From: a virus
Taxonomy: Duplodnaviria > Caudoviricetes
Virus record (IMG/VR): IMGVR_UViG_3300028571_002227
Span: 1-57,879 of that record
Length of the DNA stretch: 57,879 nt
Reading direction: 5' to 3' (one strand)
Under the pieces are notes generated by a model. The model made no database searches. It was not told where the DNA came from and was given only the letters and a program-made list of their open reading frames with translations. The translations under genes and the position numbers were made by a program. The stretch's first letter is position 1, and each line of letters starts with the position of its first letter. Positions 1 to 40,961 of this stretch are shown piece by piece.

Positions 1-69
1 ATGGTAGACGCAGTGGACTCAAAATCCACCGAGCTCAAACTCGTGCCGGTTCGAGTCCGGCCTTCGGTA
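1..69 (+). tRNA. tRNA-Leu(CAA), 5' end truncated by window edge
   Basis: D-loop TGGTAGACG; anticodon arm GTGGA-CTCAAAA-TCCAC (CAA at 20-22); long variable arm; T arm GCCGG-TTCGAGT-CCGGC; 3' acceptor strand CTTCGGT-A. Confidence 0.95.
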
Positions 70-70
70 A

Positions 71-104
71 ATAAAAAAGCTCTCAGAAATGGGAGCTTTT
101 TTAT
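71..104 (+). terminator. Rho-independent terminator of the tRNA
   Basis: ATAAAAAAGCTCTC-agaaat-GGGAGCTTTTTTAT hairpin with T-run. Confidence 0.85.
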
Positions 105-110: not shown

Positions 111-372
111 TGTATTTTATCATGTAAAATGATTTGGACAGATAGTTTAATCTCAAACGGACGTTCAAGCTATAAGCGAGTTTGAGGCTTGCTTTTTTGC
201 TATTTTTAGTCGGAAGCTAGTTTGATTTGTTTTCATTCTTTTGCATCCATTTGCAGGTTTATTGCATGGTTTGATTTGGATTTGTATTGCCAAAATCAGG
301 CTTCCGACTTAGGCACATAAGGGTTTTAAGCCAATGCAAGAATTGTGCAAGTGGTTTGATTTGAAACGGACG
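111..372 (+). repeat. Left end (attL-like) with repeated transposase-binding motifs
   Basis: 20-bp motif at 144-163 (AGTTTAATCTCAAACGGACG) and 353-372 (GGTTTGATTTGAAACGGACG); partial GTTTGATTTG copies at 219-229 and 265-278. Confidence 0.7.
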
Positions 373-408
373 TGAATTGTTACAATTGCTCTAAAAAACA
401 CTAAAAAT

Positions 409-427
409 CCTGTCAACAAATTGACAA
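409..427. promoter_or_regulatory. 19-bp dyad motif (TGTCAA-N4-TTGACA) upstream of transposase module 1
   Basis: CCTGTCAACAAATTGACAA; exact reverse complement at 4038-4056. Confidence 0.55.
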
Positions 428-565
428 CTTTTATTTCTATAACATTTTATCCCTAGAACTTTATATATACGGCTCCTCCGACTGCCATTTTTATTTTGAT
501 TCAGAACAGACACAAAACTCGGAAGTGGAGTTCCAATTTCCCACCCCAAGAGTTATCGTGTTGGT

Positions 566-2524
566 ATGGAAGAATATATAGATATAAAAAAAGTGGCGGA
601 AGTCAAACATATTAGCTCTCGGGCGGTTCGATTGGCTATTCAAAGTGATAAATATATCGCTCGTGAGGTTAAAACTCGAGGGGGCATAACCTATGAAATC
701 CTTATTTCATCACTTGAACCTGATATTCAAGGCTTTTTTAAACTCAAGCCGGAAGTCTTTTATTACCCAACACTTCCGTCTTCTGTATTCATTCCTGATA
801 CGGCGAAGACGGTTGCCCTTGCGAGAATTGATTTAATAAAGCAATGGCTTAAATTTAGAGTCCAACATTCACCAAGATATCAAGGTGATAAATTATTTAT
901 TGAAATGTACAACAGCGGAGCATTTTTAAAAAGACTATTTAAAATTGTAGGAACAACATCTCGAGGTTCGCTTCAAAGATGGAAGCAGATTTATGATGAA
1001 GTCGGAACGTGGGAATCTTTAACTCCACAGTATAGATATTCCTGCATGAATAGTTATAAGACAATATTGACAGATGAAATGTTGAAAATATTTTTAAAAA
1101 TACTTCTGCACCCGAATCAATTTAATATAGGAAAATCAATTAATTTGACAATTCAAATACTAAAGACCAACGGGATTGATGATATTCCATCAATCCCGAC
1201 ATTTAGAAGGTATGCTGAGAATTTTAAAAAGTATAATTATGACAAATGGGTTCTGATGCGAGAAGGTGAAAAAGCTCTGAAAGATAAAGTGGAGCCATAT
1301 ATTGAAAGAGACATTTCAAAACTGGAAGTGGGCGACGTACTAATTGCCGATGGTCATAAGCTAAACTTCCAAGTAATTAATCCATTTACAGGCAAGCCGA
1401 CTAGAGCAACTCTAGTCGGCTTTTTAGATTGGAAATCAGGAGCGTTAGTTGGCTATGAAATTATGCTTGAGGAAAATACTCAATGCATTGCATCTGCTCT
1501 TCGAATGGCTATTTTGAACTTAGGCTTAATTCCTAAAATTGTTTATCAAGATAACGGCAGGGCGTTCAGAGCAAAATATTTTCAGAGTTGCAGTTTTGAG
1601 GAGTCAGGCTTTAATGGGGTTTATCAAAACTTTGGCATAAAATCAGTTTTTGCAAAGCCCTACAACGCTCGGGCGAAAGTAATCGAGCGTTTCTTTTTAG
1701 AATTCCAAGAAGAGTTTGAAAAACTTCTGCCGAGTTATACAGGGACTTCAATTCAGATGAAACCTGCAAGGTTAAAGCGAAACGAAAAACTGCATAAACA
1801 AATGCATAATGATTTTATTCCCACAATAGAACAGGCAATAGGGTTCATTGATTATTGGCTTGGGTATAAACATTCAAAAGGTTGTCCTAACGATAAAAGC
1901 AAATCTATACAGGAAGTCTTGGATAGTGCTCAAAAACAAAACATAGATAAAAATAAACTTGACGACTTAATGCTGAACACCGATTTGAAAACCATTCAAA
2001 GGAATGGTATCAGGTTCTTGCAGACAAATTACAATCACGATAAATTATATGGATTGAAGGAGCGAGTGATTATCAGGTACAGCCTGTTTGACTTAACCAA
2101 AGTAAAAGTTTACTCTGATAAAGGTGAATTTATCTGTGAGGCAAAACGGGTTGAAAAGACGCACCCGATGGCATATCACATGGGGACAATTAAGGATATG
2201 GAAGACTTCAAACAGAAAATTCAAAAGCAGCAAAAAATAAGGAATAGAACGTTGAAAGCGGTTAGGAAATATTTACCTGCTGATGATATTAAATTTCTAA
2301 AAATACAGATGGAAGAAGAAATTATTGAAACAAGTGCAAAAATTATTGAGTTAAAGCCTAAAAAAGAAACGCCGAGAGAGGAACAAATAAATAAACTTTT
2401 TTTTACTTCAGACTATGAAAAATATGAATGGCTGATTGAAAAAGGGTGTACCAATAGTGAGGATAGAGCTTGGCTTACAAACTATATCAGAAGTGATGAA
2501 TACAACAATTTATACGGAGATTAA
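566..2524 (+). CDS. Mu-type DDE transposase (MuA/TnsB-like), copy 1
   Basis: N-terminal HTH; catalytic motifs IADGH, YQDNG, KVIERFF; Mu-transposase C-terminal region (RNGIRF...IRY). Confidence 0.92.
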   Translation: MEEYIDIKKVAEVKHISSRAVRLAIQSDKYIAREVKTRGGITYEILISSLEPDIQGFFKLKPEVFYYPTLPSSVFIPDTAKTVALARIDLIKQWLKFRVQHSPRYQGDKLFIEMYNSGAFLKRLFKIVGTTSRGSLQRWKQIYDEVGTWESLTPQYRYSCMNSYKTILTDEMLKIFLKILLHPNQFNIGKSINLTIQILKTNGIDDIPSIPTFRRYAENFKKYNYDKWVLMREGEKALKDKVEPYIERDISKLEVGDVLIADGHKLNFQVINPFTGKPTRATLVGFLDWKSGALVGYEIMLEENTQCIASALRMAILNLGLIPKIVYQDNGRAFRAKYFQSCSFEESGFNGVYQNFGIKSVFAKPYNARAKVIERFFLEFQEEFEKLLPSYTGTSIQMKPARLKRNEKLHKQMHNDFIPTIEQAIGFIDYWLGYKHSKGCPNDKSKSIQEVLDSAQKQNIDKNKLDDLMLNTDLKTIQRNGIRFLQTNYNHDKLYGLKERVIIRYSLFDLTKVKVYSDKGEFICEAKRVEKTHPMAYHMGTIKDMEDFKQKIQKQQKIRNRTLKAVRKYLPADDIKFLKIQMEEEIIETSAKIIELKPKKETPREEQINKLFFTSDYEKYEWLIEKGCTNSEDRAWLTNYIRSDEYNNLYGD

Positions 2525-2527
2525 ATT

Positions 2528-3259
2528 ATGAAAAAAGCATTTATTAAAACAAGAAACGTCAAAAACTTCGTTGCCCTTATGGAAAACTTAAAAAAATGCC
2601 CCAGCAATATTCCCAAAATGGCACTTGTGTATGGAGGACATGGACTCGGAAAATCGCAAACTATTTTATGGTGGGCAACAAATAACGATGCTGTGTATGT
2701 AAGAGCAAATCAGGGAATGACAAGCCGATGGCTTTTATCTGAAATAGCTGAAGAGCTTGGAGAAGTACCGTTTTGGCATACGCAGGAAACCTTTAATTTA
2801 ATAGAAAAAAATCTAAACTTAAATCAAAAGATTATTATCGTTGATGAAATTGATTATTTAATTTCAAATCAAAACACAATAGAAACCCTGAGAGATTTGC
2901 ATGATAGAACAGGAGTTCCAATAGTTCTGGTCGGAATGGGAATGGCGGACAAGAAAATTGCAAGATACAAACACCTTGAAGATAGATTTTTTGAGAAGTT
3001 AAAGTTTGAACATTTTAATCAACAGGATATTTCTGAAATAATTTCTCAGTTATCAGATATTAAATTTACAGATAATGCTATTGAATATTTGTCCATTCAA
3101 TCAAATCAATTCAGGCAAATAATTAAATTAATTAATAAGATTGAAAAAATGGCGAATACTAATAATATCAAAGAGATTGATGAATACACTTTAAAGGAGA
3201 TATTAAATGGACAACAAAATACAAAGGCTATGCAAAAGATTAAACAAATTTACGCTTGA
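2528..3259 (+). CDS. AAA+ transposition ATPase (MuB/TnsC-like) without N-terminal HTH
   Basis: Walker A GGHGLGKS, Walker B IIVDE, LRDLHD...PIVLVG motif; directly follows transposase. Confidence 0.9.
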   Translation: MKKAFIKTRNVKNFVALMENLKKCPSNIPKMALVYGGHGLGKSQTILWWATNNDAVYVRANQGMTSRWLLSEIAEELGEVPFWHTQETFNLIEKNLNLNQKIIIVDEIDYLISNQNTIETLRDLHDRTGVPIVLVGMGMADKKIARYKHLEDRFFEKLKFEHFNQQDISEIISQLSDIKFTDNAIEYLSIQSNQFRQIIKLINKIEKMANTNNIKEIDEYTLKEILNGQQNTKAMQKIKQIYA

Positions 3260-3884
3260 AGAGATTTCTTTGATAGCAGAACTTGATAAATCTGAAACAA
3301 AAAAAATTCTTAACGATTTAATCAAAACAAATTTTCTTAAAAAGAAAGATGACATATATATTTATATCGGGGGAATAAAAAAGACAAAACAAGAAAACCA
3401 ATTGCCTTTGATGTTTCAGTTTCATTCACCTGAAACTATTGAATTAATTATTAAATGTTTTTGTGCGGAAATCGAGGTTGATAAAATTGTTAAAATACTT
3501 TCACCACAAAAACATTGTATAAATAAATTCTTTGCTTATTTTAGAGATAAAATTTATGAACAGCAGTTTACGGCATTAAATAAGCATATAGAGGAAAATC
3601 CTTATATTCCTCGTGAGCGAGATTATATGGGCAAAAAAGTTCATTTATACCTTTATGAATATAAATTATTTGTTTCTACTAAATGTTTAAATGGCCCCGT
3701 TTCAAAGAATTATAACAATGATGAAAGATTGGAAATAAAAAATGTATATTTAAGATCTTACAGAAAAGTTCAAAATATTGCTTACAAAAAATATTTTCAT
3801 CTGCACCTGACCGAACAAATTTGGAGATATGGAAAAGAATTTAAACAATTGAACGAAGAATTATTCGATTTGCTATTTTTATAA
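3207..3884 (+). CDS. Winged-HTH protein fused to a degenerate IS1595/IS1016-like transposase scaffold; candidate target selector
   Basis: N-terminal wHTH-like FTLEEISLIAELDKSETKKILNDL; IS1016-like IIKCFCAEI...INKFFAYFRDKIY and FHLHLTEQIWRY; no DESYFGG catalytic segment; overlaps ATPase gene. Confidence 0.55.
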   Translation: MDNKIQRLCKRLNKFTLEEISLIAELDKSETKKILNDLIKTNFLKKKDDIYIYIGGIKKTKQENQLPLMFQFHSPETIELIIKCFCAEIEVDKIVKILSPQKHCINKFFAYFRDKIYEQQFTALNKHIEENPYIPRERDYMGKKVHLYLYEYKLFVSTKCLNGPVSKNYNNDERLEIKNVYLRSYRKVQNIAYKKYFHLHLTEQIWRYGKEFKQLNEELFDLLFL

Positions 3885-4037
3885 TTCAAACATTAAGAAA
3901 TATTAAGAATTAGTTGACAGTTCCATGGACGAGGGAAAATACATTATGTAGATTTGCTTTGGCGTAATATTTTAATTTTGCGAGGTAAAGTCCGAACCCT
4001 GAAAATGGAATAATAGTGGGAAATGTTTTTTTAAATT

Positions 4038-4056
4038 TTGTCAATTTGTTGACAGG
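4038..4056. promoter_or_regulatory. Second copy (inverted) of the 19-bp dyad motif, upstream of module 2
   Basis: TTGTCAATTTGTTGACAGG is the reverse complement of 409-427. Confidence 0.55.
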
Positions 4057-4199
4057 CTGAAATCCACTTACTGACTAAATAGTAGCGTATTGGAATATAA
4101 TAGCTTTATTGGTATTTGCACCTAATTGATTTGACATAGTGATAATTATTTTGCACTTACGACAAACAGTGACGGCGTAGTCAATTTAGGAATGAAAAA

Positions 4200-4391
4200 A
4201 TGAGCGATGGTATTACAAGTAAAAGTCAGCTTTGGAGAAAAATGACAATATTGTTATTAGACATTAGAAATTCAGAAATAGCAGATGAGTTGCATATTTC
4301 CAAAAGTTTTGTTAGTAAAATCATATGCGGCTCAAGAAAACATCCAGAATTTGACTCGTGGTTGATTAGTAAAGTCCTTAATTTAGACTAG
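4200..4391 (+). CDS. Ner/Cro-like small HTH regulator
   Basis: NSEIADELHISKSFVSKIICGSR HTH; position directly before MuA as for Mu ner. Confidence 0.75.
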   Translation: MSDGITSKSQLWRKMTILLLDIRNSEIADELHISKSFVSKIICGSRKHPEFDSWLISKVLNLD

Positions 4392-4405
4392 CGAGGATTG
4401 ATTTA

Positions 4406-6394
4406 GTGAAACAAGGACATTTATCCCAAAACAATAATACCGAAAATATTTGGCTTTCACAGAATGAAGCCAGTACACTTTTGGGTATAAAAGTTAAAAC
4501 ATTACGACAAAATTGTAGAGATGGAGTATTCCGCTTTAAAATTAGACAAATAGATAATAAATCAATTTATTATGTCTCGTTGAGTTCATTGCCTGAAAAA
4601 TATCAAGAAATATATTTTAAGATTGATACAACTATTCCTGAAAAAGATATCGATAACGCTTATTCCAATGCTCCTGAATGGGCAAAATCCAAAGCAGAAA
4701 AATATATTTCGATAATAAATGCCTGCAAAGGCTTGTCAGGGAATCCATTGGAGGAGTTTGTTATTCAGTGGAATAAAACAAACCCAGATTTAAAAACCTC
4801 ATATCCTAGCGTAAATAGAATGAGAAGAAGATTTGAAGAGCTTGGAATATCAGGACTTCTAGCCCAATATGGCTGCAGATATGGTGAAACTGTTATTGGC
4901 GAAGCAAGTTTTGAATATTTTAAAAACCTCTGCCTAGTTGAAGGTGCTCCCTCGCTGTATTCATGTTGGGAAATCACAAGAGGCTCTGCAATAAGGCAGG
5001 ATAATATAGATAAAGACAATTTCCCAAGCTATCAAACATTTAGAAGAAGATTAGAGCGAGAAGTTCCAAAACAAGCAATTTATCTCGCCAGGTATGGACA
5101 TTCAAAATGGAACAAAAAATACGGTAGTTATATCGAACGAGATTATTCAACAATTACTTGTGGCAAAGTTTGGGTGGCCGATCATGCACAAATTGATGTC
5201 GGATGTATAACCAGTGATGGAAAAGTCGTTTTCCCTTGGGTTACAGCGTGGCGTGATTTTAAATCTGGCAAATGGCTTGGCTGGATTTTACAAACCGGCT
5301 CACCAAATTCAGACCATATTTTTCAAAGTTTTTATTACTCGGCTGATGAATATGGTTTGCCAACAGATGTCATTATTGATAACGGAAAAGATTTTCGATG
5401 CAAGGATTTTGCAGGTGGCAGGAAAGTCGTAAGAGTTGATACTAATACTGCAAAAACAACCTCTATGCTTCAAGAATTGAATGTGCAAGTCCATTTTGCC
5501 TTACCTTACAACGCTCAAACGAAACCAATCGAAAGAGATTTTTTGAAAATAAAAGAATTATTATCAAAACATTGTGTCGGCTACAGAGGCGGAAATGTTG
5601 TCGAACGTCCTGAAAAACTCGTTACCGAAATAAAGCAGGGCAAATTAATGCCGTTTGATAAATTCAAAGAAATTTTCGATGATTTTATTATTAATATTTT
5701 GAATAAACGTCCATCCCAAGGGAAAAATTTAAAAAGTTTATCGCCGAATGAATTATTTAATCAAGAGTTCAAAGAAAAGATTACTGTATCAAAAGATGCT
5801 TTAAAATTATTCTGCATGAGAACTTCAAGAACTTATACCATCGGCAGAAATGGGATTAAAGACGGAGAGCTTGATATTAATTATTGGGCTGATTGGATGA
5901 TTTCTCACTATGGGGTGAAAGTATATTTGAGACGGGATATTCAAAATTATAAAGAGGCTTGGGCATTTAAAGAAGAAAATCAAGAATTTGTAGGCAAGAT
6001 TTTTGCAACAAAAGCGGTAGTTGCACTTAATGCCGACAAGATTTCCAAGGAAGAATTTAAAGAAGCTATCGGAAATAAAAAACGTGTTCAAAAGATTGTT
6101 CAAGCTTATGCGAAACAAACTCAAGAAATTGGGATTGAAGAACAATGCCAAAACTACAAGGCTGCATACTTGAATTCAAATGCTGAAGTATCCCCAAAAG
6201 TTTCTAAAATAGCCAACACCAATATGGATAAAGCTGTTAGAAAAAACAAAAAGCAAGAATCAAAAGGCAAGCAAAATTTATCTATTTTAACTGATGATTC
6301 AACTACTACTGAGAAATTTTCCGAAAAGTTTTATTTATTTGAAACAGATTTATTGTTAGAGCAAGAATCAAAAGGAGTTAAATATGGATATTAG
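4406..6394 (+). CDS. Mu-type DDE transposase (MuA), copy 2
   Basis: N-terminal Mu-type HTH (WLSQNEASTLLG...YYVSLSSLP); VADHA, IIDNG, KPIERDF catalytic motifs. Confidence 0.92.
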   Translation: MKQGHLSQNNNTENIWLSQNEASTLLGIKVKTLRQNCRDGVFRFKIRQIDNKSIYYVSLSSLPEKYQEIYFKIDTTIPEKDIDNAYSNAPEWAKSKAEKYISIINACKGLSGNPLEEFVIQWNKTNPDLKTSYPSVNRMRRRFEELGISGLLAQYGCRYGETVIGEASFEYFKNLCLVEGAPSLYSCWEITRGSAIRQDNIDKDNFPSYQTFRRRLEREVPKQAIYLARYGHSKWNKKYGSYIERDYSTITCGKVWVADHAQIDVGCITSDGKVVFPWVTAWRDFKSGKWLGWILQTGSPNSDHIFQSFYYSADEYGLPTDVIIDNGKDFRCKDFAGGRKVVRVDTNTAKTTSMLQELNVQVHFALPYNAQTKPIERDFLKIKELLSKHCVGYRGGNVVERPEKLVTEIKQGKLMPFDKFKEIFDDFIINILNKRPSQGKNLKSLSPNELFNQEFKEKITVSKDALKLFCMRTSRTYTIGRNGIKDGELDINYWADWMISHYGVKVYLRRDIQNYKEAWAFKEENQEFVGKIFATKAVVALNADKISKEEFKEAIGNKKRVQKIVQAYAKQTQEIGIEEQCQNYKAAYLNSNAEVSPKVSKIANTNMDKAVRKNKKQESKGKQNLSILTDDSTTTEKFSEKFYLFETDLLLEQESKGVKYGY

Positions 6395-7262
6395 AGATGA
6401 ATTACGGAGCATAATGCTTAATAAAAAATACAGTTTTTCTGCGGTTGCAAAAGCAACCGGAATATCACAAACGGTGATTAATCTATGGTTAAACAATAAT
6501 TACACGGGCAAAAATGATAAGGTTGCAGATACTATTAACAATTTTGTACAAAGAGAAAAAGAACGTAATTTCAAAAATATAATTCCATACGTTGAAACAT
6601 CAGTTGTTAAATATATTCATGAGGTGGCAAGATTATGCCATACGAACGGCGAGATTGGCGTTTGCTACGGTGAATCAGGACTTGGTAAGACTATTGCAGT
6701 AAAGGAATATTCAAAGCTGTATTCCGACTCCATCTTGATAGAAACTGACCCCGGTTACACAACAAAATCTTTATTGTGCGAAATGCACAAACGGCTTGGG
6801 CTTTCTTCTAAAGGATGTTCGTATGATTTGATGGATGAAGTTGTAAGAAAATTAAGCAACTCAGGAAGATTATTGATAATTGATGAAGCTGAAAACCTAC
6901 CATATAAAGGCTTAGAGGTTTTAAGAAGAATCCACGACAAAACCGGTGTAGGAATGCTTTTAATCGGAATGCCGGCACTGGTTGAAAATTTGAGGGGCAG
7001 CCAAAATCAATACAGGCAGCTTTATTCAAGAGTTGGATTTTCAAAATCATTGGATAGACTTTTGCCTGTTGATGTTTCTAATATTTTAAAATCAGTTGAC
7101 GAAGATTTAAAACTTTGCCCAAGCTTTTTGACTTACTCAAACGGTAATACTAGAACTCTGGCGAAGCTTATATTAAGAGCGCCGAGTGTTGCTAAATACA
7201 ACAAAAAAGAAAAATTGGACACTCTGATAATAAAGCAAACTTCGCAGTTGATTATGGTCTAG
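6384..7262 (+). CDS. MuB-like ATPase with N-terminal HTH
   Basis: HTH SAVAKATGISQTVINLWL; Walker A GESGLGKT; Walker B LIIDEAE; QLYSRVG. Confidence 0.92.
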   Translation: MDIRDELRSIMLNKKYSFSAVAKATGISQTVINLWLNNNYTGKNDKVADTINNFVQREKERNFKNIIPYVETSVVKYIHEVARLCHTNGEIGVCYGESGLGKTIAVKEYSKLYSDSILIETDPGYTTKSLLCEMHKRLGLSSKGCSYDLMDEVVRKLSNSGRLLIIDEAENLPYKGLEVLRRIHDKTGVGMLLIGMPALVENLRGSQNQYRQLYSRVGFSKSLDRLLPVDVSNILKSVDEDLKLCPSFLTYSNGNTRTLAKLILRAPSVAKYNKKEKLDTLIIKQTSQLIMV

Positions 7263-7272
7263 GAACAGGAAA

Positions 7273-7416
7273 ATGACAAAAAACGACAAACTATTTTATA
7301 TTTTTATAATCGTCTTAATTCTAATTATACTTGGAGTTCAGATTGGGATTGCCCATGGTCGAAAATTACAAATTGAAGATATAAGGAACGATAATGATTA
7401 CATCTGCTCAAATTAA
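7273..7416 (+). CDS. 47-aa single-pass membrane protein (not in ORF track)
   Basis: MTKNDKLFYIFIIVLILIILGVQIGIAHG...; RBS CAGGA; fills the gap in the early operon. Confidence 0.6.
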   Translation: MTKNDKLFYIFIIVLILIILGVQIGIAHGRKLQIEDIRNDNDYICSN

Positions 7417-7861
7417 AAAAATTCATACACTCAAAAATATATTACATCTTGATGATGAACTTTATGTTGAACTGTTAATGAGTTTTGGCGTGCATAGCTC
7501 TAAAAAATTGACATCTACGGAAGCAAATATTTTTGTTGAGATTTTAGAAGAAAAAGCAATTTTGACTAATAAATGGGTGATAAGAAATAAAAAATTCGAA
7601 GATTTAAGTTCTAGGGTTAATTCAAATGAAGTGGCTATGGCAACGCCGCCTCAGCTAAGAATGATTGAATCAATATGGCGAGAAATTTGTTATGTCGATA
7701 CCGATGAATTTGCAAAGCAATCACTCAGAAAATTTCTACAAAATAAATTTAAAATTAGTGACTTAAAATTTCTAACTAAAAACACTGCAGTTAGAGTTAT
7801 ACGTGCAATTTTGCAAATAAAACAGAACGTAAAAGGGTCAAAGTTGCCCTTTGTAAAGTAG
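7394..7861 (+). CDS. gemA: GemA/gp16 family protein
   Basis: QIKKIHTLKNILHLDDELY...SSKKLT and ATPPQLRMIESIW motifs; Mu early operon position. Confidence 0.8.
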   Translation: MITSAQIKKIHTLKNILHLDDELYVELLMSFGVHSSKKLTSTEANIFVEILEEKAILTNKWVIRNKKFEDLSSRVNSNEVAMATPPQLRMIESIWREICYVDTDEFAKQSLRKFLQNKFKISDLKFLTKNTAVRVIRAILQIKQNVKGSKLPFVK

Positions 7862-7881
7862 AAAATAAAGGAGAAACAAAA

Positions 7882-8115
7882 ATGGACGAACAGTCAAAAA
7901 TTGTAGGACTTATTAAAACTCAAATTAAGGAGTTGGAGGATCAATTAACTCAGGCAAAGATTGAGTATGCCGACAGCTCTTTAGCCGAAAATGATTGGCA
8001 GTGTAAAAATGACAGAAGAATGAAATGCAAAGTAATTGAATCTCAAATTTTCATTCTTCAAAAGGTGAAAAAAGAAATTTTGACGATGTTTACAAGACAA
8101 TTTGTAAACGCCTAA
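7882..8115 (+). CDS. Hypothetical coiled-coil phage protein
   Basis: Strong RBS AAGGAG; in early operon. Confidence 0.7.
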   Translation: MDEQSKIVGLIKTQIKELEDQLTQAKIEYADSSLAENDWQCKNDRRMKCKVIESQIFILQKVKKEILTMFTRQFVNA

Positions 8116-8179
8116 GTCGAAACACAGGGCTAACAGTGCAAGCCCCGTGTATTGAAGTGTTGCTTCAACTGACGAGACT
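8115..8179 (+). ncRNA. Type II hammerhead ribozyme
   Basis: AGTC-GAAA-CACAGGGCT[loop]AGCCCCGTG-TA-TTGAAG[loop]CTTCAA-CTGACGA-GACT: full core GAAA/GUA/CUGAnGA with stems II, III and I. Confidence 0.88.
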
Positions 8180-8193
8180 AAAAGAGGACTTTT

Positions 8194-8493
8194 ATGGATT
8201 TTGAAATTAAACCTTGGATAGAAAATATAACGGCAGAAGATATGCCAAATGATGATTTAAGATTTATCGCTGAAAAAGCAGGTCTAAAATCAGCACTTGC
8301 TCTTATTTTCTTTACCCCAGGACTTAATGTTTCCATCCCCAAAACAGCATTCAAGCAACTAAAAGACAAATATATTTTGAATAATTATAGTGGCGATAAA
8401 TACTCGATGAATGATTTATCCGTAAAATGTTCGGTTTCCCAAAGATATATTTACCGATTGATAAAAAACAAAATCAAACCCCAAAACCCTTAA
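8194..8493 (+). CDS. mor: Mor/C family transcription activator
   Basis: IAEKAGLKSALAL...GLNVSIPK; C-terminal HTH DLSVKCSVSQRYIYRLI; last gene of early operon. Confidence 0.8.
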   Translation: MDFEIKPWIENITAEDMPNDDLRFIAEKAGLKSALALIFFTPGLNVSIPKTAFKQLKDKYILNNYSGDKYSMNDLSVKCSVSQRYIYRLIKNKIKPQNP

Positions 8494-8519
8494 TTCCTAA
8501 CCACTCCAGACCATTAGTC

Positions 8520-8544
8520 GCCCTCTTATATGAGGGCTTTTTTT
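8520..8544 (+). terminator. Rho-independent terminator of early operon
   Basis: GCCCTC-ttatat-GAGGGC-TTTTTTT. Confidence 0.85.
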
Positions 8545-8607
8545 ACTCAATAAAATGCAATTTTTATGATAAGATAAAAGAAATTAATAAGGAGATAAAT
8601 ATTACAA

Positions 8608-8871
8608 ATGAAAGATTTATTAGAAAAATATATGGAACGAATTAGTTCATGGCAGTCTCAGGTTAAATCAGGTGAAATAAACAAATCAGCAGATTTCCCT
8701 GAAGATGAATTGAAGGAAATGATGAGTTTCTTTTCTGACCGTGAGAGTCCTTTAAATAGAATACATGCAAATTTAGACTCAATGCTTGATAACAGAGATA
8801 TTACAGAAATTGAGGCACACTTAGAAGATTGCTGGGTAATCCTGAATAACGCCTTAAAGCAGTATAAATAA
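8608..8871 (+). CDS. Small acidic hypothetical protein (moron)
   Basis: RBS AAGGAG; stand-alone gene followed by GAGCTC...GAGCTC hairpin at 8875-8896. Confidence 0.65.
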   Translation: MKDLLEKYMERISSWQSQVKSGEINKSADFPEDELKEMMSFFSDRESPLNRIHANLDSMLDNRDITEIEAHLEDCWVILNNALKQYK

Positions 8872-8969
8872 ATAGAGCTCCTCTGAGGAAGAGCTCGGTA
8901 GTTGTAAGATAAATCATGATTCATTTTAACCATGTTTTTTGGTTATAGCAAATTTGTTACAATTAAAAT

Positions 8970-9353
8970 CTATTTTGAAGTATTTTTAACTTCAATCTCG
9001 ATTAAGTGAGTTTCAAAATCATTGCCTAATGATTTACCCAACCATTCAAAAGCTCGTTTTAAATCGATGTCAGGGGCATTAGCAAGCCAAATAACTCCCT
9101 GGGCTTCTTGCAATGCACATTCAACTACAATGCAACCCAAGTCGTACTCATCGCTTTTTTCTTTGTCACATTTTACAAAAAATGTTTGCTCCAAGATTTC
9201 ATTCTTAACCGTAAATCCATCGTGAACCATTTGGACAGACTCATTAATCAAAGTAAGCCCAGTTTGTTTTAACACTTCAAGGTTATCTCTGACCCATTCT
9301 TCAAGCCCGTAATGCTCATCAAAGTTTGCCATAATAGTAATTTTTTGCTTCAT
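8970..9353 (-). CDS. Degenerate PD-(D/E)xK-like domain of the type found N-terminal to DUF4268
   Basis: EEWVRDNLEVL...KSDEYDLG...AQGVIWLA...AFEWL...HLIEIEV pattern; expected IENQ motif replaced by VKCD. Confidence 0.5.
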   Translation of the reverse strand: MKQKITIMANFDEHYGLEEWVRDNLEVLKQTGLTLINESVQMVHDGFTVKNEILEQTFFVKCDKEKSDEYDLGCIVVECALQEAQGVIWLANAPDIDLKRAFEWLGKSLGNDFETHLIEIEVKNTSK

Positions 9354-9526
9354 CTAAAACACCTTTCGTTAGTTCGTTTGGAGTTTAGCTTGTAAGTGCT
9401 TAAAAAAGTTTAAATATGTTGCTTTTATTAAGTTAAATATTAATTTTAATTTATTTATTTGTGTTTCTTGCATATTAAACTTACAATCATAGAATATTAT
9501 TTACTAAAATTATTTAAGGAGCTTTT

Positions 9527-10429
9527 TTGAATCAACGCAAAGAAAAAGGTGGCTTGCATTTATTTAATAGAAAATCGGGTACTCACATCTTGTTAGACGA
9601 ATTGAACTTTTCAGAAAATGAAATATCAAAGTCTCCTAGAACAATAAGTATAGCGGTTACAAATGTTTGCAATCTGAATTGCCCATTCTGTTATGCCCCC
9701 AAAAATCATAATTCACTACCACTCGATTTTTTAAAAAATGCAGTTAAAGAATTTGATAAATTAAAAGTTTTTGAAATAACGATAGGTGGCGGAGAGCCCT
9801 TCGCCTATCCTAATTTAGTCGAATTCTGCAAGTGGACATGGGAAAATACAAAATTAGGTATTAATATTACAACCAATGGTCAATTGTTAAATGAAAATAT
9901 TATTTCAGATTTAGAAGGTTATATTTCATCTATTCGTATATCTATAGAAGCGATAGGTGCGAAATATTCAAAAGTAAGAGGGGCGTCTTTTTCTAAAATC
10001 CAAGCAAGTATAAATTCATTAAAAGGAAAAATTCCAATGTCTATTAATTGCGTTGTCTTAAAAAATAATGTTGACAATTTGATTGAAGTAATAGAATTTG
10101 CAATGAAAAACTCTATTTATGATGTTTTAATTATTGCAGAACACAATAAAGGATTATCCGTATTGGATGAAAAAGAATTACACAAAATTGAAAATATTAT
10201 TCTTGAATATAAAGATAAGATCCAATTAACCTTAACTGATGAACTTGCAAAATTATTAGATATAAATATACTTTCCGATGGTGATACTGAAGAATATGGA
10301 TTTGCCCATCTTTCCTCGGATAAAAAAATAAAACAAAATTCATTTGCAATAGATGGAATAAAAATAAATGATATAAGTGATATAAAAGACGCATTCATTA
10401 AGTTATATAAAAATAAGGAGGTTGTATGA
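9527..10429 (+). CDS. Radical SAM protein
   Basis: CNLNCPFC (CX3CX2C), GGGEPF, ITTNG; no SPASM cysteines; TTG start with AAGGAG. Confidence 0.88.
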   Translation: MNQRKEKGGLHLFNRKSGTHILLDELNFSENEISKSPRTISIAVTNVCNLNCPFCYAPKNHNSLPLDFLKNAVKEFDKLKVFEITIGGGEPFAYPNLVEFCKWTWENTKLGINITTNGQLLNENIISDLEGYISSIRISIEAIGAKYSKVRGASFSKIQASINSLKGKIPMSINCVVLKNNVDNLIEVIEFAMKNSIYDVLIIAEHNKGLSVLDEKELHKIENIILEYKDKIQLTLTDELAKLLDINILSDGDTEEYGFAHLSSDKKIKQNSFAIDGIKINDISDIKDAFIKLYKNKEVV

Positions 10430-10791
10430 AAATTTGGAAAACATTTGCAGCTGAACATTCAGCTAAATTAAAAATTGTTGGTTCTTTTAAAACAGAAGAA
10501 GATTTAGAAAAAGTTAAGGAAATTATTGAAGCTTTTTTAGAAATTGATACGCATGAACAACCAACTAAAGAAGACTATTATACTGACAAAGTTATGGATA
10601 TTTTTAAAAAATATAATTTTTCAGTAGCTCCAGAAGATGTTAAGCATTTTAATCATTTACATAGTATAAATTACGATGATAATCAAATTGAAATATTTAC
10701 AGATGAACTAGAAATTCAAGGATTAATTAGCCTGATGATTCAAAAGGGAGCTAAAATTGAAATGTATAGTCAGCATAATTATCCAGGTTAA
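10426..10791 (+). CDS. DUF6375-like protein coupled to the radical SAM gene
   Basis: MKIW...EHS..L.IVGSFK N-terminus and GAKIEMYSQHNYP C-terminus recalled from this family; ATGA overlap. Confidence 0.55.
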   Translation: MKIWKTFAAEHSAKLKIVGSFKTEEDLEKVKEIIEAFLEIDTHEQPTKEDYYTDKVMDIFKKYNFSVAPEDVKHFNHLHSINYDDNQIEIFTDELEIQGLISLMIQKGAKIEMYSQHNYPG

Positions 10792-10810: not shown

Positions 10811-11143
10811 TCAATAAAATAAAATTTCTTCAGTATATTTTTTTAATCTTTGAACATCTGACTTGAATTCATTCTCTGCGGCGGATGCGTTATGCCTGTA
10901 AGTGACATGGTGGCTGAGTCCGTTTGGTGTTTTCATTTCAGAATAAGGGATTGAATAAATTAGCTCCCATTTTTCATCTTTCAAAATATAAGCCCTTGCG
11001 TAGCATTGCATATCAAAGGAATCTGATTTGATTTCAAGTTTTATTTTTTTATTTTCCAATCCATAAATTTCTCTAAAATTTACGGACTGAGACCCTTTAT
11101 AAGTGATTTTTTCGATTGTTATTTCTTTTATTTTTTTTGACAT
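10811..11143 (-). CDS. Hypothetical accessory protein (start MSKKIK)
   Basis: RBS TAAGGAG within repeat A1 ahead of ATG at 11143. Confidence 0.65.
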   Translation of the reverse strand: MSKKIKEITIEKITYKGSQSVNFREIYGLENKKIKLEIKSDSFDMQCYARAYILKDEKWELIYSIPYSEMKTPNGLSHHVTYRHNASAAENEFKSDVQRLKKYTEEILFY

Positions 11144-11147
11144 GGCG

Positions 11148-11211
11148 TTCTCCTTAATCTCTCTATTCATGCGGGTTTAGGATTGGGGCAAATTGTGCCA
11201 CTAACCTCTTT
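11148..11211 (-). repeat. Intergenic repeat A, copy 1 (dyad + RBS)
   Basis: 55/64 identical to 11622-11685. Confidence 0.85.
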
Positions 11212-11213
11212 TT

Positions 11214-11420
11214 TTATTCTTCGACTGGGGCTATATTATCCATCGCTGTGTTATATTTTTTACCATTTTCATCAACGCAGGTGGCGAATGGAATATCAAC
11301 AGGACCATCGGAGTTCCAAAAGGTGTTATCCCAAGTATAAATAAGTAAACCTAATGATTTTTTTTCGTGATTATAAATCTTAGTACCATAAAGTAAATTG
11401 TTTTGATTTTTAAGTGTCAT
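11214..11420 (-). CDS. Small hypothetical accessory protein (start MTLKNQ)
   Basis: RBS AAAGGAG; lies downstream of repeat B1. Confidence 0.65.
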   Translation of the reverse strand: MTLKNQNNLLYGTKIYNHEKKSLGLLIYTWDNTFWNSDGPVDIPFATCVDENGKKYNTAMDNIAPVEE

Positions 11421-11445
11421 AATTTTGTCTCCTTTGTTGTTCATC

Positions 11446-11517
11446 TACAATGACATTAATCCCTCTTCCCAATTGGAATTGGAAGTCATTGTGGCTATTC
11501 CGAATCATTCCTACACA
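11446..11517 (-). promoter_or_regulatory. Intergenic repeat B, copy 1 (promoter-like)
   Basis: 54/72 identical and ungapped to 12523-12594; conserved blocks GAATGATnCGGAATAG, TTCCAAT, GAGGGATTAATGT on minus strand. Confidence 0.7.
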
Positions 11518-11621
11518 TTAGTTTTACTTGGTATCTTCAATTTTGTAATAGCATTTGTTTTACACTTCTGCCTTTATGCTTTTTAAAACTCAATTTTTAT
11601 TACATATTATTTAACATAGTA

Positions 11622-11685
11622 TTCTCCTTAAGCTCTTTATCCATGAAGGTTTAGGATGGGGGCAAATTGTGCCCACAACCTCTTT
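11622..11685 (-). repeat. Intergenic repeat A, copy 2
   Basis: Matches 11148-11211; its RBS leads to an ATG at 11617 that stops after 5 codons (decayed gene). Confidence 0.85.
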
Positions 11686-11686
11686 C

Positions 11687-12502
11687 TTATAAATACTTTG
11701 TAAATGTACTTTTAAAATCTTCCGCCGTTCTGATTTGGTCTTTTATTGCGGATCCCCAATTTTCCTCATTGGTAATATCAATAGAATAAACTTTTCTTAT
11801 TCTGCTTGATTTTTTACCTTTGAGTTCCTGCCAATCAAGCTCTCCAAGTTGTTTCTCGATTTTTTCTTTTGATTTTTCTAATGAGTAAAATATTTCTTTA
11901 TTGTTGTTAATCAATAATTCGCAGCCGACGCAGTTTTGTTGAGTATTAATTGTTAATTGGATTGAAACTCCTGCCTTGCCTATCGGAATATATTGCCAAT
12001 GTTGGGAAGCAGGTTTTACCTGCAAATCACTTTCTAATTTGTCGCAAATTTCAAAATATTTTGTCCAATAATTTAATTGAAGTTGTTTTGTATCGGTTTC
12101 GGAATTCCGTTTCGCAGTCTTGTGAGGTTGGGCAAGCGTTTCAAATGCCATTTTATTGCCATTTAAATAGGCTTTGAATAAGAAAATGCCACAACCTTTT
12201 ACTAAAAATAAATTTAAACTTTTAATACTTTGAACCAAGTTTTCTTTTTCGTTTGCAACAATCCAAACAATAAACGGCGGTTGCTTGTATTTTTGAATTT
12301 CAGCTAACGTATTGACAAACGTATCTGCACTTTGAGTTAATTCTGCCACTGTAGCAATAACTTTGCCGTCTGCTTGAGGATAATCAGCTAATGTTCTAAT
12401 AATGTCACCTTTGTTACAGTCTCTAACAAAATCTTCAAAGTTTTTTCGACTTTTGAATGCCTGCTCTGCGGTGAGGGATAATGTTTCTGTGCTTTTGTCC
12501 AT
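11687..12502 (-). CDS. DUF4268 domain protein with degenerate N-terminal nuclease-like domain
   Basis: C-terminal LQLNYW...QHWQYIPIG...KIEKQLGELDWQELKGKKSSRI. Confidence 0.75.
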   Translation of the reverse strand: MDKSTETLSLTAEQAFKSRKNFEDFVRDCNKGDIIRTLADYPQADGKVIATVAELTQSADTFVNTLAEIQKYKQPPFIVWIVANEKENLVQSIKSLNLFLVKGCGIFLFKAYLNGNKMAFETLAQPHKTAKRNSETDTKQLQLNYWTKYFEICDKLESDLQVKPASQHWQYIPIGKAGVSIQLTINTQQNCVGCELLINNNKEIFYSLEKSKEKIEKQLGELDWQELKGKKSSRIRKVYSIDITNEENWGSAIKDQIRTAEDFKSTFTKYL

Positions 12503-12522
12503 AATTATTCTCCTATTATTTG

Positions 12523-12594
12523 TACAATCACATTAATCCCTCGTAGCATTGCAGATTGGAACTTGTTTTAACTATTCCGTATCATTCAGACACA
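12523..12594 (-). promoter_or_regulatory. Intergenic repeat B, copy 2 (promoter-like)
   Basis: Matches 11446-11517; directly upstream of the DUF4268 gene RBS. Confidence 0.7.
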
Positions 12595-12630
12595 ATAATT
12601 TGCTCTAATTCACCTGTTTTAGGCTGTTTT

Positions 12631-12664
12631 GGTTAGTGGTACAATTTACCACTAACCTCTTTTT
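12631..12664. terminator. Hairpin at end of late operon, related to the repeat A dyad
   Basis: GGTTAGTGGTA-caatt-TACCACTAACC-TCTTTTT perfect 11-bp stem; shares CCACTAACCTCTTT with repeat A1. Confidence 0.65.
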
Positions 12665-12665
12665 A

Positions 12666-12911
12666 TTAATCCGTTTTATTAAATTGTTTAATCAATGAAT
12701 TTAATTTGTGTATGTCAAATTTAGACATCAAACTTTGATACTTGAGGGCAATTTGAATAATTTGTTCTGCAATATCTGCAGCTTTTTTTAAATCTCTTTT
12801 GTCATCAATAATCTCAGTTTCATCCTGATTTTCAGTTTTTACTCTTTTATAACTGAAAAATTGAGCTAAACAATTTAATAACGCCTGAACGCTTGCTTGA
12901 ATTCCGAACAT
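12666..12911 (-). CDS. Hypothetical protein of lysis module
   Basis: RBS GGAGG; downstream of endolysin. Confidence 0.65.
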   Translation of the reverse strand: MFGIQASVQALLNCLAQFFSYKRVKTENQDETEIIDDKRDLKKAADIAEQIIQIALKYQSLMSKFDIHKLNSLIKQFNKTD

Positions 12912-12919
12912 TTTTCCTC

Positions 12920-13201
12920 CTATGCTCTAAGTTTTTCGACAAAACCAAGCAAAGAATTCGCAAAAGTTTCGAGTGCTGAAACTCCTTGATTAAAACAATA
13001 ATTATCAAGCTCATTCGGTGTTTCTTTAATTTTAGCTTTGAGCTTAAATAAACTGTCTATTGTAGGTTGAGTGTACTTTGCAAGATTTTCATAAAGCAGC
13101 GTAATTGTTTTTGGCACTTGTTGTTTGACTAAGTTTTCAACAAAAGGCTTAATTGCGGCCCATAACTCGTTAAGATTTTTCCATTTTGAAAATAATGTCA
13201 T
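12920..13201 (-). CDS. Hypothetical protein of lysis module
   Basis: RBS AAGGA; co-oriented with endolysin. Confidence 0.65.
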   Translation of the reverse strand: MTLFSKWKNLNELWAAIKPFVENLVKQQVPKTITLLYENLAKYTQPTIDSLFKLKAKIKETPNELDNYCFNQGVSALETFANSLLGFVEKLRA

Positions 13202-13216
13202 AAGTTTTTCCTTTCT

Positions 13217-13732
13217 TTAAACTGTAACTTTTCCATTTTTGATTTGTATAATGTACCAATCAATTTTATTCCTGAGGTAATCACCCCCTTTTTCAACTGC
13301 TATATTCGGTAAGAACTGAAAGTAAGTAAAATCAATCTTTCCATAGCTTGTAGTTTTTGGATGTTTTTGTCCAAACTCATGATGCGTAAACACAGTCTCA
13401 GGTGAAACCTTAATTCCGTATTTAATGCAAAGTTCTGCCGCCAACTTGCAGAAAGCTTCAATCTGAACTTTTGTAAGAGGGTAAGCAGTCTTTTTATCTT
13501 TTAAATTAAATCCCGCCATTCCGAGTGCAGACAAACCTATACAACCTGTATTACCGCCTCCGCAATGCATTGCATATTGATTAGGCTTGCAGATTATGTT
13601 GCATTCAGGCTTAAAATGCCCCGGATAGACTTTCCCATCCTTATCAACCAAAAAGTGGTAGGCTTTAAAATCGACCTCGCAAGGGTAAGATGCTCCGGCG
13701 CTCCAGTGTAAACAAATTTTAGTTAATGACAT
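13217..13732 (-). CDS. Endolysin, N-acetylmuramoyl-L-alanine amidase (Amidase_2)
   Basis: ICLHWSAG, YHFLVD, HCGGGN, VFTHHE motifs; start MSLTKI with GAGGTG RBS. Confidence 0.85.
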   Translation of the reverse strand: MSLTKICLHWSAGASYPCEVDFKAYHFLVDKDGKVYPGHFKPECNIICKPNQYAMHCGGGNTGCIGLSALGMAGFNLKDKKTAYPLTKVQIEAFCKLAAELCIKYGIKVSPETVFTHHEFGQKHPKTTSYGKIDFTYFQFLPNIAVEKGGDYLRNKIDWYIIQIKNGKVTV

Positions 13733-14036
13733 AATTTCCCACCTCATTTCTGGCATTTTGCCGTTGTTGTAGTAGTTCCAAATATTCATCTTTAGAGAGC
13801 GTTGTTGCAATGCTTAGAGCAAGTTGGTCTTGATGTCTAAGCACTTTCCAATCTGTTGATTTTAGAAGCTCCAAACCTTCTGATGAACTTGTTTTCCCTA
13901 AAAGTTCATCAATGTTTAAAACCCATTCACCATTTGTATAAATCGCATTTTCATGTGGGCGAACAGGAACAATGATGTCATTTAGCAACACCGTTTCCGT
14001 AAAAATATATTCACCGTTTCTAATAACTGATTCCAT
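13719..14036 (-). CDS. Tail fibre assembly/chaperone protein
   Basis: LKSTDWKVLR...RQNARN motif; follows tail fibre. Confidence 0.7.
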   Translation of the reverse strand: MESVIRNGEYIFTETVLLNDIIVPVRPHENAIYTNGEWVLNIDELLGKTSSSEGLELLKSTDWKVLRHQDQLALSIATTLSKDEYLELLQQRQNARNEVGNYVIN

Positions 14037-16216: not shown

Positions 16217-16228
16217 ATTTTAGTCTCC

Positions 16229-17245: not shown

Positions 17246-17252
17246 AATTCTC

Positions 17253-19023: not shown

Positions 19024-19379
19024 ACCATCACCTCAGTAACAGAAGTAATTTCAGAATCAATCAGGTTCCATTCGATTTTAATTTTTACGTTCGCTACATC
19101 AATTTCAGCACTAACATTTTTAATTTCAATTCTAGTTTCCCACTCAGAAATTGCATCAATAACTTCTCTGATAATATTTGGAACAGCTTCTTGGACGGGA
19201 TAGTCGATGTATTTAAAAATATCAGAACCAAAAGTCGGACGATGAGGCACAGAGCCTTTTTGTGTAGTCAAAATAATATAAATGCATTGATTTATATCAT
19301 CAATTCCTTGTGCGACTTCGCCAATTTCATTCAACTTCGGCTGCCAATCGACATATTTAATTTCGTTTAAATTAGTCAT
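19020..19379 (-). CDS. Baseplate gpW/gp25 family protein
   Basis: ILTTQKGSVPHRPTFGS...WETRI. Confidence 0.9.
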   Translation of the reverse strand: MTNLNEIKYVDWQPKLNEIGEVAQGIDDINQCIYIILTTQKGSVPHRPTFGSDIFKYIDYPVQEAVPNIIREVIDAISEWETRIEIKNVSAEIDVANVKIKIEWNLIDSEITSVTEVMV

Positions 19380-21499: not shown

Positions 21500-21500
21500 A

Positions 21501-24414: not shown

Positions 24415-24415
24415 T

Positions 24416-24937: not shown

Positions 24938-24946
24938 TTTCTCTCC

Positions 24947-27665: not shown

Positions 27666-27674
27666 TTTTTCTCC

Positions 27675-28586: not shown

Positions 28587-28587
28587 T

Positions 28588-29565: not shown

Positions 29566-29637
29566 CTTTAACCTTTCTTTGAATTTATGCGTGGAAAAGG
29601 TACAAGATGCGTAATGCACCTTATACCTTAACTTTTT

Positions 29638-40960: not shown

Positions 40961-40961
40961 A

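Follow-up and report, generated by a model that had tools for sequence, protein, structure and literature searches.

Two divergent MuA/MuB-type transposition modules in a family of tRNA-proximal Mu-like prophages

The IMG/VR record IMGVR_UViG_3300028571_002227 (57,879 nucleotides, all of which were analyzed and are called the window here) holds one Mu-like transposable myovirus prophage of 57,670 bp, at 111-57,780, from an uncultured Melainabacteria-type host. Its left part carries two complete transposase/ATPase pairs in tandem, A1-B1, followed by a third gene, orf3, and A2-B2. From comparison with related elements, we propose with moderate confidence that A1, B1 and orf3 would direct insertion close to tRNA genes, and that A2 and B2 would perform replicative transposition of the Mu type, in a lineage that has stably inherited both modules. 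The genes of the two modules are listed below, with the basis of each assignment (HTH, helix-turn-helix; ORF, open reading frame).

566-2524, plus strand: A1, MuA-like DDE transposase, 652 amino acids (D262, D329, E374); Pfam, PHROG.
2528-3259, plus strand: B1, AAA+ ATPase of the MuB/TnsC/TniB kind, 243 amino acids, without N-terminal HTH; Pfam, profile.
3207-3884, plus strand: orf3, third gene, 225 amino acids, candidate target selector or regulator; conserved after B1.
4200-4391, plus strand: ner-like small HTH protein; phrog_1468 transcriptional repressor, 2.7e-5, and a weak HTH_23 match.
4406-6394, plus strand: A2, MuA-like DDE transposase, 662 amino acids (D259, D325, E376); Pfam, PHROG.
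6384-7262, plus strand: B2, MuB-like AAA+ ATPase with N-terminal HTH, 292 amino acids; Pfam, PHROG, structure profiles.
7394-7861, plus strand: gemA; GemA match, 3.2e-13.
7882-8115, plus strand: small ORF between gemA and mor; ORF list.
8194-8493, plus strand: mor-like late activator; Mor, 3.7e-5 and 24.1 bits, just below the Pfam cut-off of 24.9; phrog_836 late activator, 2.3e-10.

Both transposases match the C-terminal and I-gamma domains of the Mu transposase. A1 matches Mu-transpos_C (3.9e-14) and, at full length, phrog_310 (1.9e-94), and A2 matches DDE_2 (2.2e-8), HTH_Tnp_Mu_2, Mu-transpos_C and phrog_310 (1.6e-85). When the profiles were compared with solved structures, MuA (4fcy) came first for both (5.1e-7 for A1 and 1.1e-11 for A2) and the TnsB of ShCAST second (3.4e-5 and 2.1e-10). 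B1 matches AAA_22 and TniB (38.6 bits, against a cut-off of 22.4), has no HTH, and is about equally far from MuB (6e-11) and TnsC (VchTnsC, 1.2e-9; ShTnsC, 1.7e-9). B2 combines HTH_26 with AAA_22 and matches phrog_296 (4.6e-76), MuB (8xvb, 5.3e-23) and the N-terminal domain of MuB (2mqk, 3.4e-5). The gene order of module 2, ner-A-B-gemA-mor, is that of the classical Mu early operon. A first-pass annotation made from the letters alone had described the first ATPase as lacking an HTH and preceding a third gene, and the second as an HTH-MuB within such an operon, and the Pfam, PHROG and MuB matches agree with it.

By their sequences, the two A/B pairs are old paralogues and clearly different proteins. 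A1 and A2 share 29% identity over 393 amino acids, hhalign relates their profiles with 99.7% probability over 535 columns, N-terminal DNA-binding parts included, and B1 and B2 are 24% identical. The same annotation's claim of two complete, divergent pairs at 566-7262, with full DDE triads and Walker A and B motifs, is borne out by the reading frames and by residue conservation among homologues: D262 (53/53), D329 (53/53) and E374 (52/53) in A1; D259, D325 and E376 (each 45/45) in A2; Walker A K42 (47/47) and Walker B D106 (47/47) and E107 (46/47) in B1; and K102, D167 and E168 (each 28/28) in B2.

We then consider how the modules combine in relatives, all from uncultured hosts and mostly from metagenome-assembled genomes (MAGs), which are subject to errors of binning and assembly; the searches covered a sample of genomes, and contigs rather than reads were compared. 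Genomes and loci are cited by G and L numbers. In phage records, every match to A1 or A2 is less than 60% identical (21-31% among the matches listed, 25 per query), and no record holds more than one transposase place (for A1, 246 in 246 records; for A2, 36 in 36); a scan of viral contigs with A2 found no relative. Scanning species-representative genomes with A1 yielded 25 loci, mostly in MAGs labelled Gastranaerophilales, Melainabacteria or Cyanobacteriota, with few other labels; five of them carry the tandem A1-B1-(orf3)-ner-A2-B2-gemA-mor. The class of one tandem-bearing genome (401 genomes) was searched with A2, with a match at E ≤ 1e-30 in 50, and the best 40 A2 places of that search (A2 identity 52-66%) were fetched with about 8 kb of upstream sequence. 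Genes of module 1 lie directly upstream of A2 in 37 of these 40: in full (A1-B1-orf3) in 32, counting L092 with a partial B1 match and no orf3 match, and as B1 and/or orf3 up to the contig end in five more. Two places are uninformative, their contigs being cut just upstream of A2, and a lone exception, L106 (A2 52%), has 5.9 kb upstream without module 1. The first-pass annotation had set in advance what would speak against a true pairing, namely prophages generally carrying module 2 alone and module 1 as a separate unit with its own ends; module 1 upstream in 37 of 40 A2 places and a window with no second pair of ends are what we found instead.

Downstream of A2, these 37 loci differ: 24 continue with B2-gemA, 12 with a DUF1804-like HTH gene and no B2, and one is cut. 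The B2-less locus that was examined, L110 (G390:C1, at about 1.037 Mb), holds DpnII-type restriction-modification genes, HamA with a helicase (Hachiman-type) and further genes of a non-phage kind, and no phage genes. Since 12 loci lack B2 and the one examined is not a phage, A2 would have a function independent of B2 and of lytic growth. A chloramphenicol-acetyltransferase-family gene also lies near L110.

Other combinations exist. Ten A1 genes from scattered branches of their tree are followed by 2-8.6 kb of sequence in which no A2 occurs; one of these genes is the second, head-to-head copy in L005, where mor and tail-region genes are kept. Among nine weaker A2 places that were fetched, five are single-module ner-A2-B2-gemA-mor prophages (A2 44-49%) with no module 1 upstream, although L125 among them has just 2.1 kb of upstream sequence. 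With L106, module-2-only phages total six (A2 44-52%). Three states are thus represented (module 1 without A2, both modules, module 2 alone), and on the A1 tree at least six to nine changes of the A2 state are required. For about 400 nt, the left ends resemble each other whether an element has A1 only or bears A2 as well.

Where the modules occur together, they appear to be inherited together. The pairwise distances of A1 and A2 correlate over 37 loci (Pearson r 0.85, with 0 of 2000 permutations as high), and their mean divergence over these loci is similar (0.32 for A1, 0.35 for A2). Median ratios of nonsynonymous to synonymous substitution rates (dN/dS) are 0.090 for A1, 0.077 for B1, 0.135 for orf3, 0.105 for A2 and 0.078 for B2. 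The checks of co-inheritance and of dN/dS (0.08-0.14 for the five genes) that had been suggested for this pairing came out in its favor, and the alignments show both modules to be intact, co-inherited and under purifying selection.

The same survey bears on the main rival explanation, in which A1 and A2 would be two subunits of one machine, acting on different sub-sites or strands in the manner of TnsA and TnsB, while B1/orf3 and B2 would serve as alternative target adaptors. We regard it as rather unlikely. It accounts for an A2 clade (52-66%) that, in informative places, never occurs without A1 except in L106 (37 with module 1, two cut), for the retention of A2 in 12 loci without B2, and for two transposases that are full-length homologues, N-terminal DNA-binding parts included, with no separate ends found for A2. 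It also draws on the co-variation of A1 and A2 distances, but this is expected from linkage alone. Subunits of one machine are harder to reconcile with the ten A1 genes that have no A2 downstream and are scattered over their tree, or with the Mu-like phages that have only module 2. Moreover, A1 and A2 both have complete DDE triads, which strand-specialized partners need not keep.

Both modules lie inside a single element, the termini of which are inverted ends of about 55 bp. The features of its ends are the following.

1-68, plus strand: 3' part of a host tRNA gene (T-arm GGTTCGAGTCC), truncated by the window start; read from the sequence.
75-101, plus strand: terminator-like hairpin and T-run after the tRNA, AAAAAAGCTCTCAGAAATGGGAGCTTTTTT; judged by eye, unscored.
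111-565, plus strand: element left end, with terminus TGTATTTTATCATG, repeats of the GGTTTGATTTG type at 219, 268 and 353, and AAACGGACG at 155 and 364.
409-427, no strand: palindromic operator-like site TGTCAA-N4-TTGACA, about 157 bp before A1.
4038-4056, no strand: the same operator-like palindrome again, about 160 bp upstream of ner; the sole other copy in the window.
57724-57780, minus strand: right end, an inverted copy of the left terminus, ..CAAATCAAACCATGTGATAATTTACA; motif and repeat search.

Genome G407 has a place that window bases 1-67 match at 86%; ARAGORN detects no whole tRNA at the window start because the gene is truncated. The claim that both modules belong to one prophage holds, with a single pair of inverted ends (111 and 57,780) and a full myovirus gene set between them. 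In the probable source sample, contigs span 39,420-57,810 unbroken, and one contig joins the left flank (bases 94-110), followed by 13 other letters, to the right flank at 57,781. A site free of the element is therefore present in that population, and all 57,670 bp make up one insertion; the sample is not independent, being probably the one from which the window itself came. The window's closest relatives, G406 and G407, were also checked for an empty site, where the right flank had no match and the left flank matched the tRNA only; left ends alone were recovered from these two. A shared operator ahead of both modules was considered as a feature of the family and dropped, being present only in the window (as a 19-mer) and in L072 (as a 15-mer), with 29 of 300 shuffles sharing a match of at least 12 letters.

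The right ends of three relatives were located by comparing elements inserted at different places, and they are homologous (..AATAATCAAACCATGTGTTCTTTTACA) to the right end of the window. All three elements are bracketed by 5-bp duplications.

G390 element: 602,702-659,560, 56,859 bp, duplication CTATC.
G240 element: 113,429-170,206, 56,778 bp, duplication TTAAA.
G296 element: coordinates not to the base, about 56.7 kb, duplication ATTAC.

Earlier searches for right ends, which used inverted matches of the 800 bp upstream of each locus and left-end motifs in G390, gave nothing because the right-end sites are too diverged. The G240 and G390 elements share their phage genes, and the 14-15 kb or so between the recombinase and the right end are unrelated, with a defence-like flavour in G390; total size is nevertheless almost equal. 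A near-constant length with differing accessory DNA points to the whole unit as the packaged genome (headful limit), against a smaller phage nested within it. As judged from these boundaries, whole elements move with 5-bp duplications.

These data address a composite structure, in which a tRNA-targeting transposon (A1-B1-orf3 with accessory genes) would today hold a Mu-like phage that moves on internal ends by means of A2 and B2. Both building blocks do occur separately in the same bacterial class, as A1-B1-orf3(-A2) defence elements and as single-module ner-A2-B2-gemA-mor phages, and the A1 tree implies at least six to nine gains or losses of A2. Against it, no end-like repeat is present between orf3 and ner or after the head genes, the junction of orf3 and A2 is the same in 37 places, the duplications bracket whole units of 56.7-56.9 kb, and a constant total size with differing accessory DNA fits a single packaged genome. 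In the window, no further copy of the terminal motifs and no other inverted repeat was found that would set module 1 apart from module 2 or close off the phage genes near 37-38 kb. Searches for internal ends of module 2, by terminal motif and by local comparison of 3860-4420 with 37,000-38,000 and with the whole window, returned the operator palindrome only; an 11-mer that the 3860-4420 region shares with 37,924 is at chance level (E 0.12). We consider such a nested organization quite improbable for the present element. As to origin, a module-1 transposon and a module-2 phage are likely to have fused, the present structure being a single unit. The earlier alternative of a transposon that had captured a phage may thus fit the origin, since module-2-only phages and module-1 transposons both exist, but it does not describe the structure seen today.

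Rearranged copies were also noted among the relatives. L002 and L005 (about 6.2-12.8 kb) have two module-1 copies head to head, with the left ends facing and no tRNA between them. On the viral contig L001, positions 1156-9770 are a deletion derivative inserted after a tmRNA gene, in which A1 residues 1-602 are fused in frame to a DUF1804-like gene and everything matching window 2330-30549 is missing. In L117 (G406:C92), a left end of 200 nt after a tRNA, 89% identical to that of the window, runs straight into homologues of the accessory genes from the right side of the window, which lie in inverted orientation, so as to form a rearranged or mini derivative. L003 was considered as a 4-kb mini-element and set aside, since it yielded no right end and its poly-C run points to misassembly.

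The strongest clue to the role of module 1 comes from where these elements sit. Fifty A1 genes had at least 700 bp of upstream sequence; tRNA and tmRNA genes were called by ARAGORN and tallied by script. A tRNA or tmRNA gene lies at most 1.2 kb upstream of the A1 start in 29 of the 50, in the same orientation as A1 in all 29, and seven more have a tRNA 1.2-3.5 kb upstream, again always in the same orientation. The remaining 596 kb of fetched DNA hold nine tRNA genes, including those seven, so that tRNA density near A1 is about 30-fold higher. At least 11 tRNA identities plus tmRNA are used, and a single near-identical clade (A1 branch lengths 0-0.035) occupies Ser-CGA, Ser-TGA, Asn, His, tmRNA and Met genes. 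Because near-identical elements occupy different tRNA genes, the target appears to be tRNA genes in general and not one sequence. The exact terminus TGTATTTTATCATG follows six different tRNA or tmRNA genes (in the window, L001, L116, L117, L118 and L119). The terminus lies about 38-192 nt after the 3' end of the tRNA, usually beyond the terminator. The A1-only loci L003, L010, L016, L018 and L025 are tRNA-adjacent as well, compared with one of the six module-2-only phages, L128. On the loci compared, the oriented, tRNA-proximal bias is strong and travels with the A1-B1-orf3 core.

In the mechanism we favor, module 1, which consists of A1, B1 and a putatively DNA-binding orf3 and is the invariant core of the family, would insert the element in one orientation downstream of a tRNA or tmRNA gene, at a distance of a few tens of bp up to about 190 bp, founding a lysogen at a mostly harmless place. 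Module 2 (ner, A2, B2, gemA, mor) would carry out untargeted replicative transposition during lytic growth, and both transposases would act on the same ends. In this scheme, orf3 may be the target selector, reading something that all tRNA genes share, for instance the T-arm. The reasoning behind this division is that a few dozen tRNA sites (about 45) cannot support lytic amplification and that random integration is costly in a 2-Mb genome. The first-pass annotation had already given targeted integration to module 1, a putative role for which the oriented tRNA and tmRNA siting, of A1-only elements too, now provides real comparative support. Its assignment of lytic replication to module 2 draws on MuA/MuB likeness and the ner-A-B-gemA-mor context alone, and is complicated by 12 non-phage-like loci that keep A2 without B2.

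Several observations weigh against this division of labour. The window ends in TG..CA, but its flanking 5-mers differ (ATATT and CTGAT), so that it has no target duplication, and 13 nt of target are missing relative to the empty-site contig. Twelve loci keep A1-B1-orf3-A2 without B2 and gemA, and no end sites specific to A2 were identified. Fourteen of the 50 A1 genes have no tRNA within 3.5 kb, the variable gap contrasts with the constant distance kept by TnsD or RNA-guided systems, and the G296 insertion disrupts an epimerase-like ORF. In addition, orf3 is not recognizable as a TniQ protein: none of 25 members matches the TniQ Pfam family at E ≤ 1, although they may be distant kin. Finally, L128 (G385:C29) is a ner-A2-B2-gemA-mor prophage located 31 nt after a tRNA-Glu gene, with a similar terminus, TGTGTATAATTTATCA, so that module 1 is not alone in being found close to tRNA genes. 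Together with the elements that lack B2, L128 is a real difficulty for the proposal, and on their account we keep open a cooperation of A1 and A2. The left end of L128 consists of at least five copies of a repeat of about 30 nt.

Some of these points would also suit an explanation without targeting, in which tRNA proximity reflects the survivorship of random Mu-like insertions and module 1 is a second, largely redundant module. The variable spacing, the 14 A1 genes without a nearby tRNA and the insertion inside an ORF are in line with it. It does not predict, however, that 29 near and seven farther tRNA genes are all oriented like A1, or a tRNA density about 30-fold above that of the other fetched DNA; other neutral intergenic sites are not used alike, and all five genes are under purifying selection. 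We consider this explanation very unlikely.

The third gene of module 1 is the candidate for target recognition. The start of orf3 overlaps the end of B1 by 53 nt, and an alignment of 25 homologues has seven invariant residues besides the initiator Met and one N-terminal Leu. The AlphaFold2 model (predicted local distance difference test [pLDDT] 89.7) places a winged helix at residues 1-60, with Z scores of 9-9.7 to MecR2, IdeR and IclR-type domains. The C-terminal domain, modelled separately (pLDDT 92.9), comprises an HTH, a long helix and three strands and has no clear known fold; its best match, a weak one, is the ISCth4 transposase (6xg8; Z 5.2, 133 residues, root-mean-square deviation 3.9). 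Foldseek at E ≤ 0.001 returned nothing for either model, and an Atlas search gave only weak IS1595-type leads (0.83-0.85). Complex prediction of B1 with orf3 scored 0.54, compared with 0.13 for the best of three controls; the runs agree in at least 68% of contacts, and the partners have pLDDT values of at least 81. The mark used is reached by 58 of 80 solved complexes and two of 110 mismatched pairs, and at scores up to 0.60 by seven of the 80 and both mismatches. The prediction thus gives weak support to a B1-orf3 complex, passes at or below 0.60 being more often wrong than right. On these models, orf3 is a candidate DNA-binding partner and not an established target selector.

A broader proposal can be advanced tentatively. 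The A1-B1-orf3 core might be a protein-guided DDE system that recognizes tRNA and tmRNA genes as a class, probably through a T-arm-like DNA feature read by a non-TniQ orf3, and that a Mu-like phage lineage has fused to a MuA/MuB replication module. Such an element would be the first transposable phage to settle by one machine and multiply by another, and would form a living link from Mu to the Tn7-type elements. Full-text literature searches listed no account of two A/B modules, or of tRNA-proximal insertion, in a Mu-like phage.

Between its ends, the element carries a full myovirus (contractile-tail) gene set, with PHROG matches from 1.4e-72 to 1.7e-269, and accessory genes.

11687-29619, minus strand: tail and head genes; PHROG.
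14036-16216, minus strand: fibre-like; PHROG.
17911-19023, minus strand: baseplate; PHROG.
21501-24035, minus strand: tape measure; PHROG.
24947-26179, minus strand: sheath; PHROG.
27675-28586, minus strand: major head; PHROG.
28588-29619, minus strand: protease; PHROG.
30523-33875, plus strand: DUF1804-like HTH protein, large terminase (30938-32302) and portal (32427-33875); Pfam and PHROG scans.
33808-36614, plus strand: two DNA methyltransferases (33808-34998 and 35799-36614) with an ORF between them; PHROG.
37095-37957, plus strand: small tyrosine recombinase (37095-37637) and inverted repeats of 20-21 nt (37689-37709, 37882-37902 and 37938-37957), before the sugar cluster.
37981-57420, no strand: accessory region of about 20 kb; Pfam scans.

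The accessory region contains a polysaccharide-type cluster (DegT, hexapeptide transferases, AMP-binding, GFO, radical SAM, FkbM, KDO-8-P-synthase-like, ABC exporter). In two other lake samples, contigs continue after 37,958 as the reverse complement of about 37,661-37,690, the segment being flipped. This suggests an invertible promoter switch for the sugar genes of this cluster. Near the right end (54237-57420), an FRG-domain protein precedes a Shedu SduA-type gene (56230-57420); relatives have other defence-like genes at the corresponding place. The block from the tail-tube gene to the large terminase (24416-32302) is inverted relative to L108 (G390), and the divergent late-gene spacer has a 30-nt, 90% palindrome at 29902-29962. 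In the early region, mor is followed by a radical SAM protein (300 amino acids) and a DUF6375 protein (9527-10791). Three copies of a 39-93-nt repeat (GTTTAGGATTGGGGCAAATTGTGCCAC..) lie at 11122-12664 among short minus-strand ORFs, the first overlapping the start of ORF 10811-11170. Homologues of ORF 11214-11444 adjoin the transposition genes in many relatives.

The closest known systems are Mu and the Mu-like phages (B3, D3112, BalMu-1 and others). In Mu, one A/B pair serves both integration and replication at near-random sites. The element shares with these phages a MuA-like DDE transposase and a MuB-like HTH-AAA+ ATPase, genes ordered ner-A-B-gemA-mor, several subterminal repeats next to TG..CA ends, contractile-tail genes and 5-bp duplications (here in relatives); it differs in the second A/B pair and orf3 at its left end, and its family is tRNA-proximal and not randomly inserted. 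Unlike in Mu, leftward ORFs of repressor size (at least 50 amino acids) between the left end and ner are limited to 50-52-amino-acid ones within the left end and the A1 start. An excerpt of PMC3820752 gives about 37 kb for the Mu genome, compared with about 57 kb for the element.

Tn7 has one core machine shared by two target selectors, and its insertion is tightly targeted. The Tn7 analogy drawn in the first-pass annotation is accordingly loose, two whole machines being present here. Nearer in siting are the Tn7-like elements that home to tRNA genes, the type V-K, I-B2 and I-D CRISPR-associated transposons (CASTs; TnsB-TnsC-TniQ/TnsD), which likewise encode near one end a DDE transposase, its AAA+ adaptor and a third protein, insert on the downstream side of tRNA genes in one orientation, generate duplications of 5 bp and carry accessory DNA rich in defence genes. 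The I-D CAST, for example, homes to tRNA-Leu and inserts 30-33 nt downstream, according to an excerpt of PMC10293859. The present family differs in using many tRNA species at a variable 38-192 nt, and not one site at a fixed distance; in addition, the unit that inserts is a phage, and B1 resembles MuB and TnsC about equally. A1 and A2 do match TnsB, though MuA more strongly. No TnsA and no TniQ/TnsD family match appeared in the Pfam scan of the ten ORFs at 566-8871, nor any TnsA in the Pfam scans of the ORFs at 37,095-57,420, the structural genes having been compared with PHROGs only. Likewise, no Cas family was matched in Pfam scans of 35 window ORFs (structural genes again by PHROGs only), and no CRISPR search was made.

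Tn5053/Tn402 (TniA-TniB-TniQ-TniR) offers the same order of transposase, TniB-type ATPase and third gene, and B1 passes the TniB cut-off. Those transposons have TniQ, a TniR resolvase and res-site targets, whereas the targets of the element family are tRNA-proximal, and no TniQ or serine resolvase was matched among the ORFs scanned against Pfam. The retrotransposons Ty3 and Dictyostelium TRE5-A read the RNA polymerase III machinery, which bacteria lack. Their chemistry and proteins are unrelated to those of the element; what they share with it, by analogy only, is insertion beside many different tRNA genes as a safe haven in gene-dense genomes.

Set among these systems, the element family combines the Mu and Tn7 styles in one phage genome, a combination kept through long divergence, and it bears on the relation between the MuA/MuB and TnsB/TnsC systems. 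If the division of labour is true, the phage would spare the small, gene-dense genome of its host on lysogeny and yet replicate by scattering copies, and its target selector would read tRNA genes in general, as, to our knowledge, no described bacterial transposon system does. It would then be a compact, protein-guided, oriented insertion system of interest to genome engineers.

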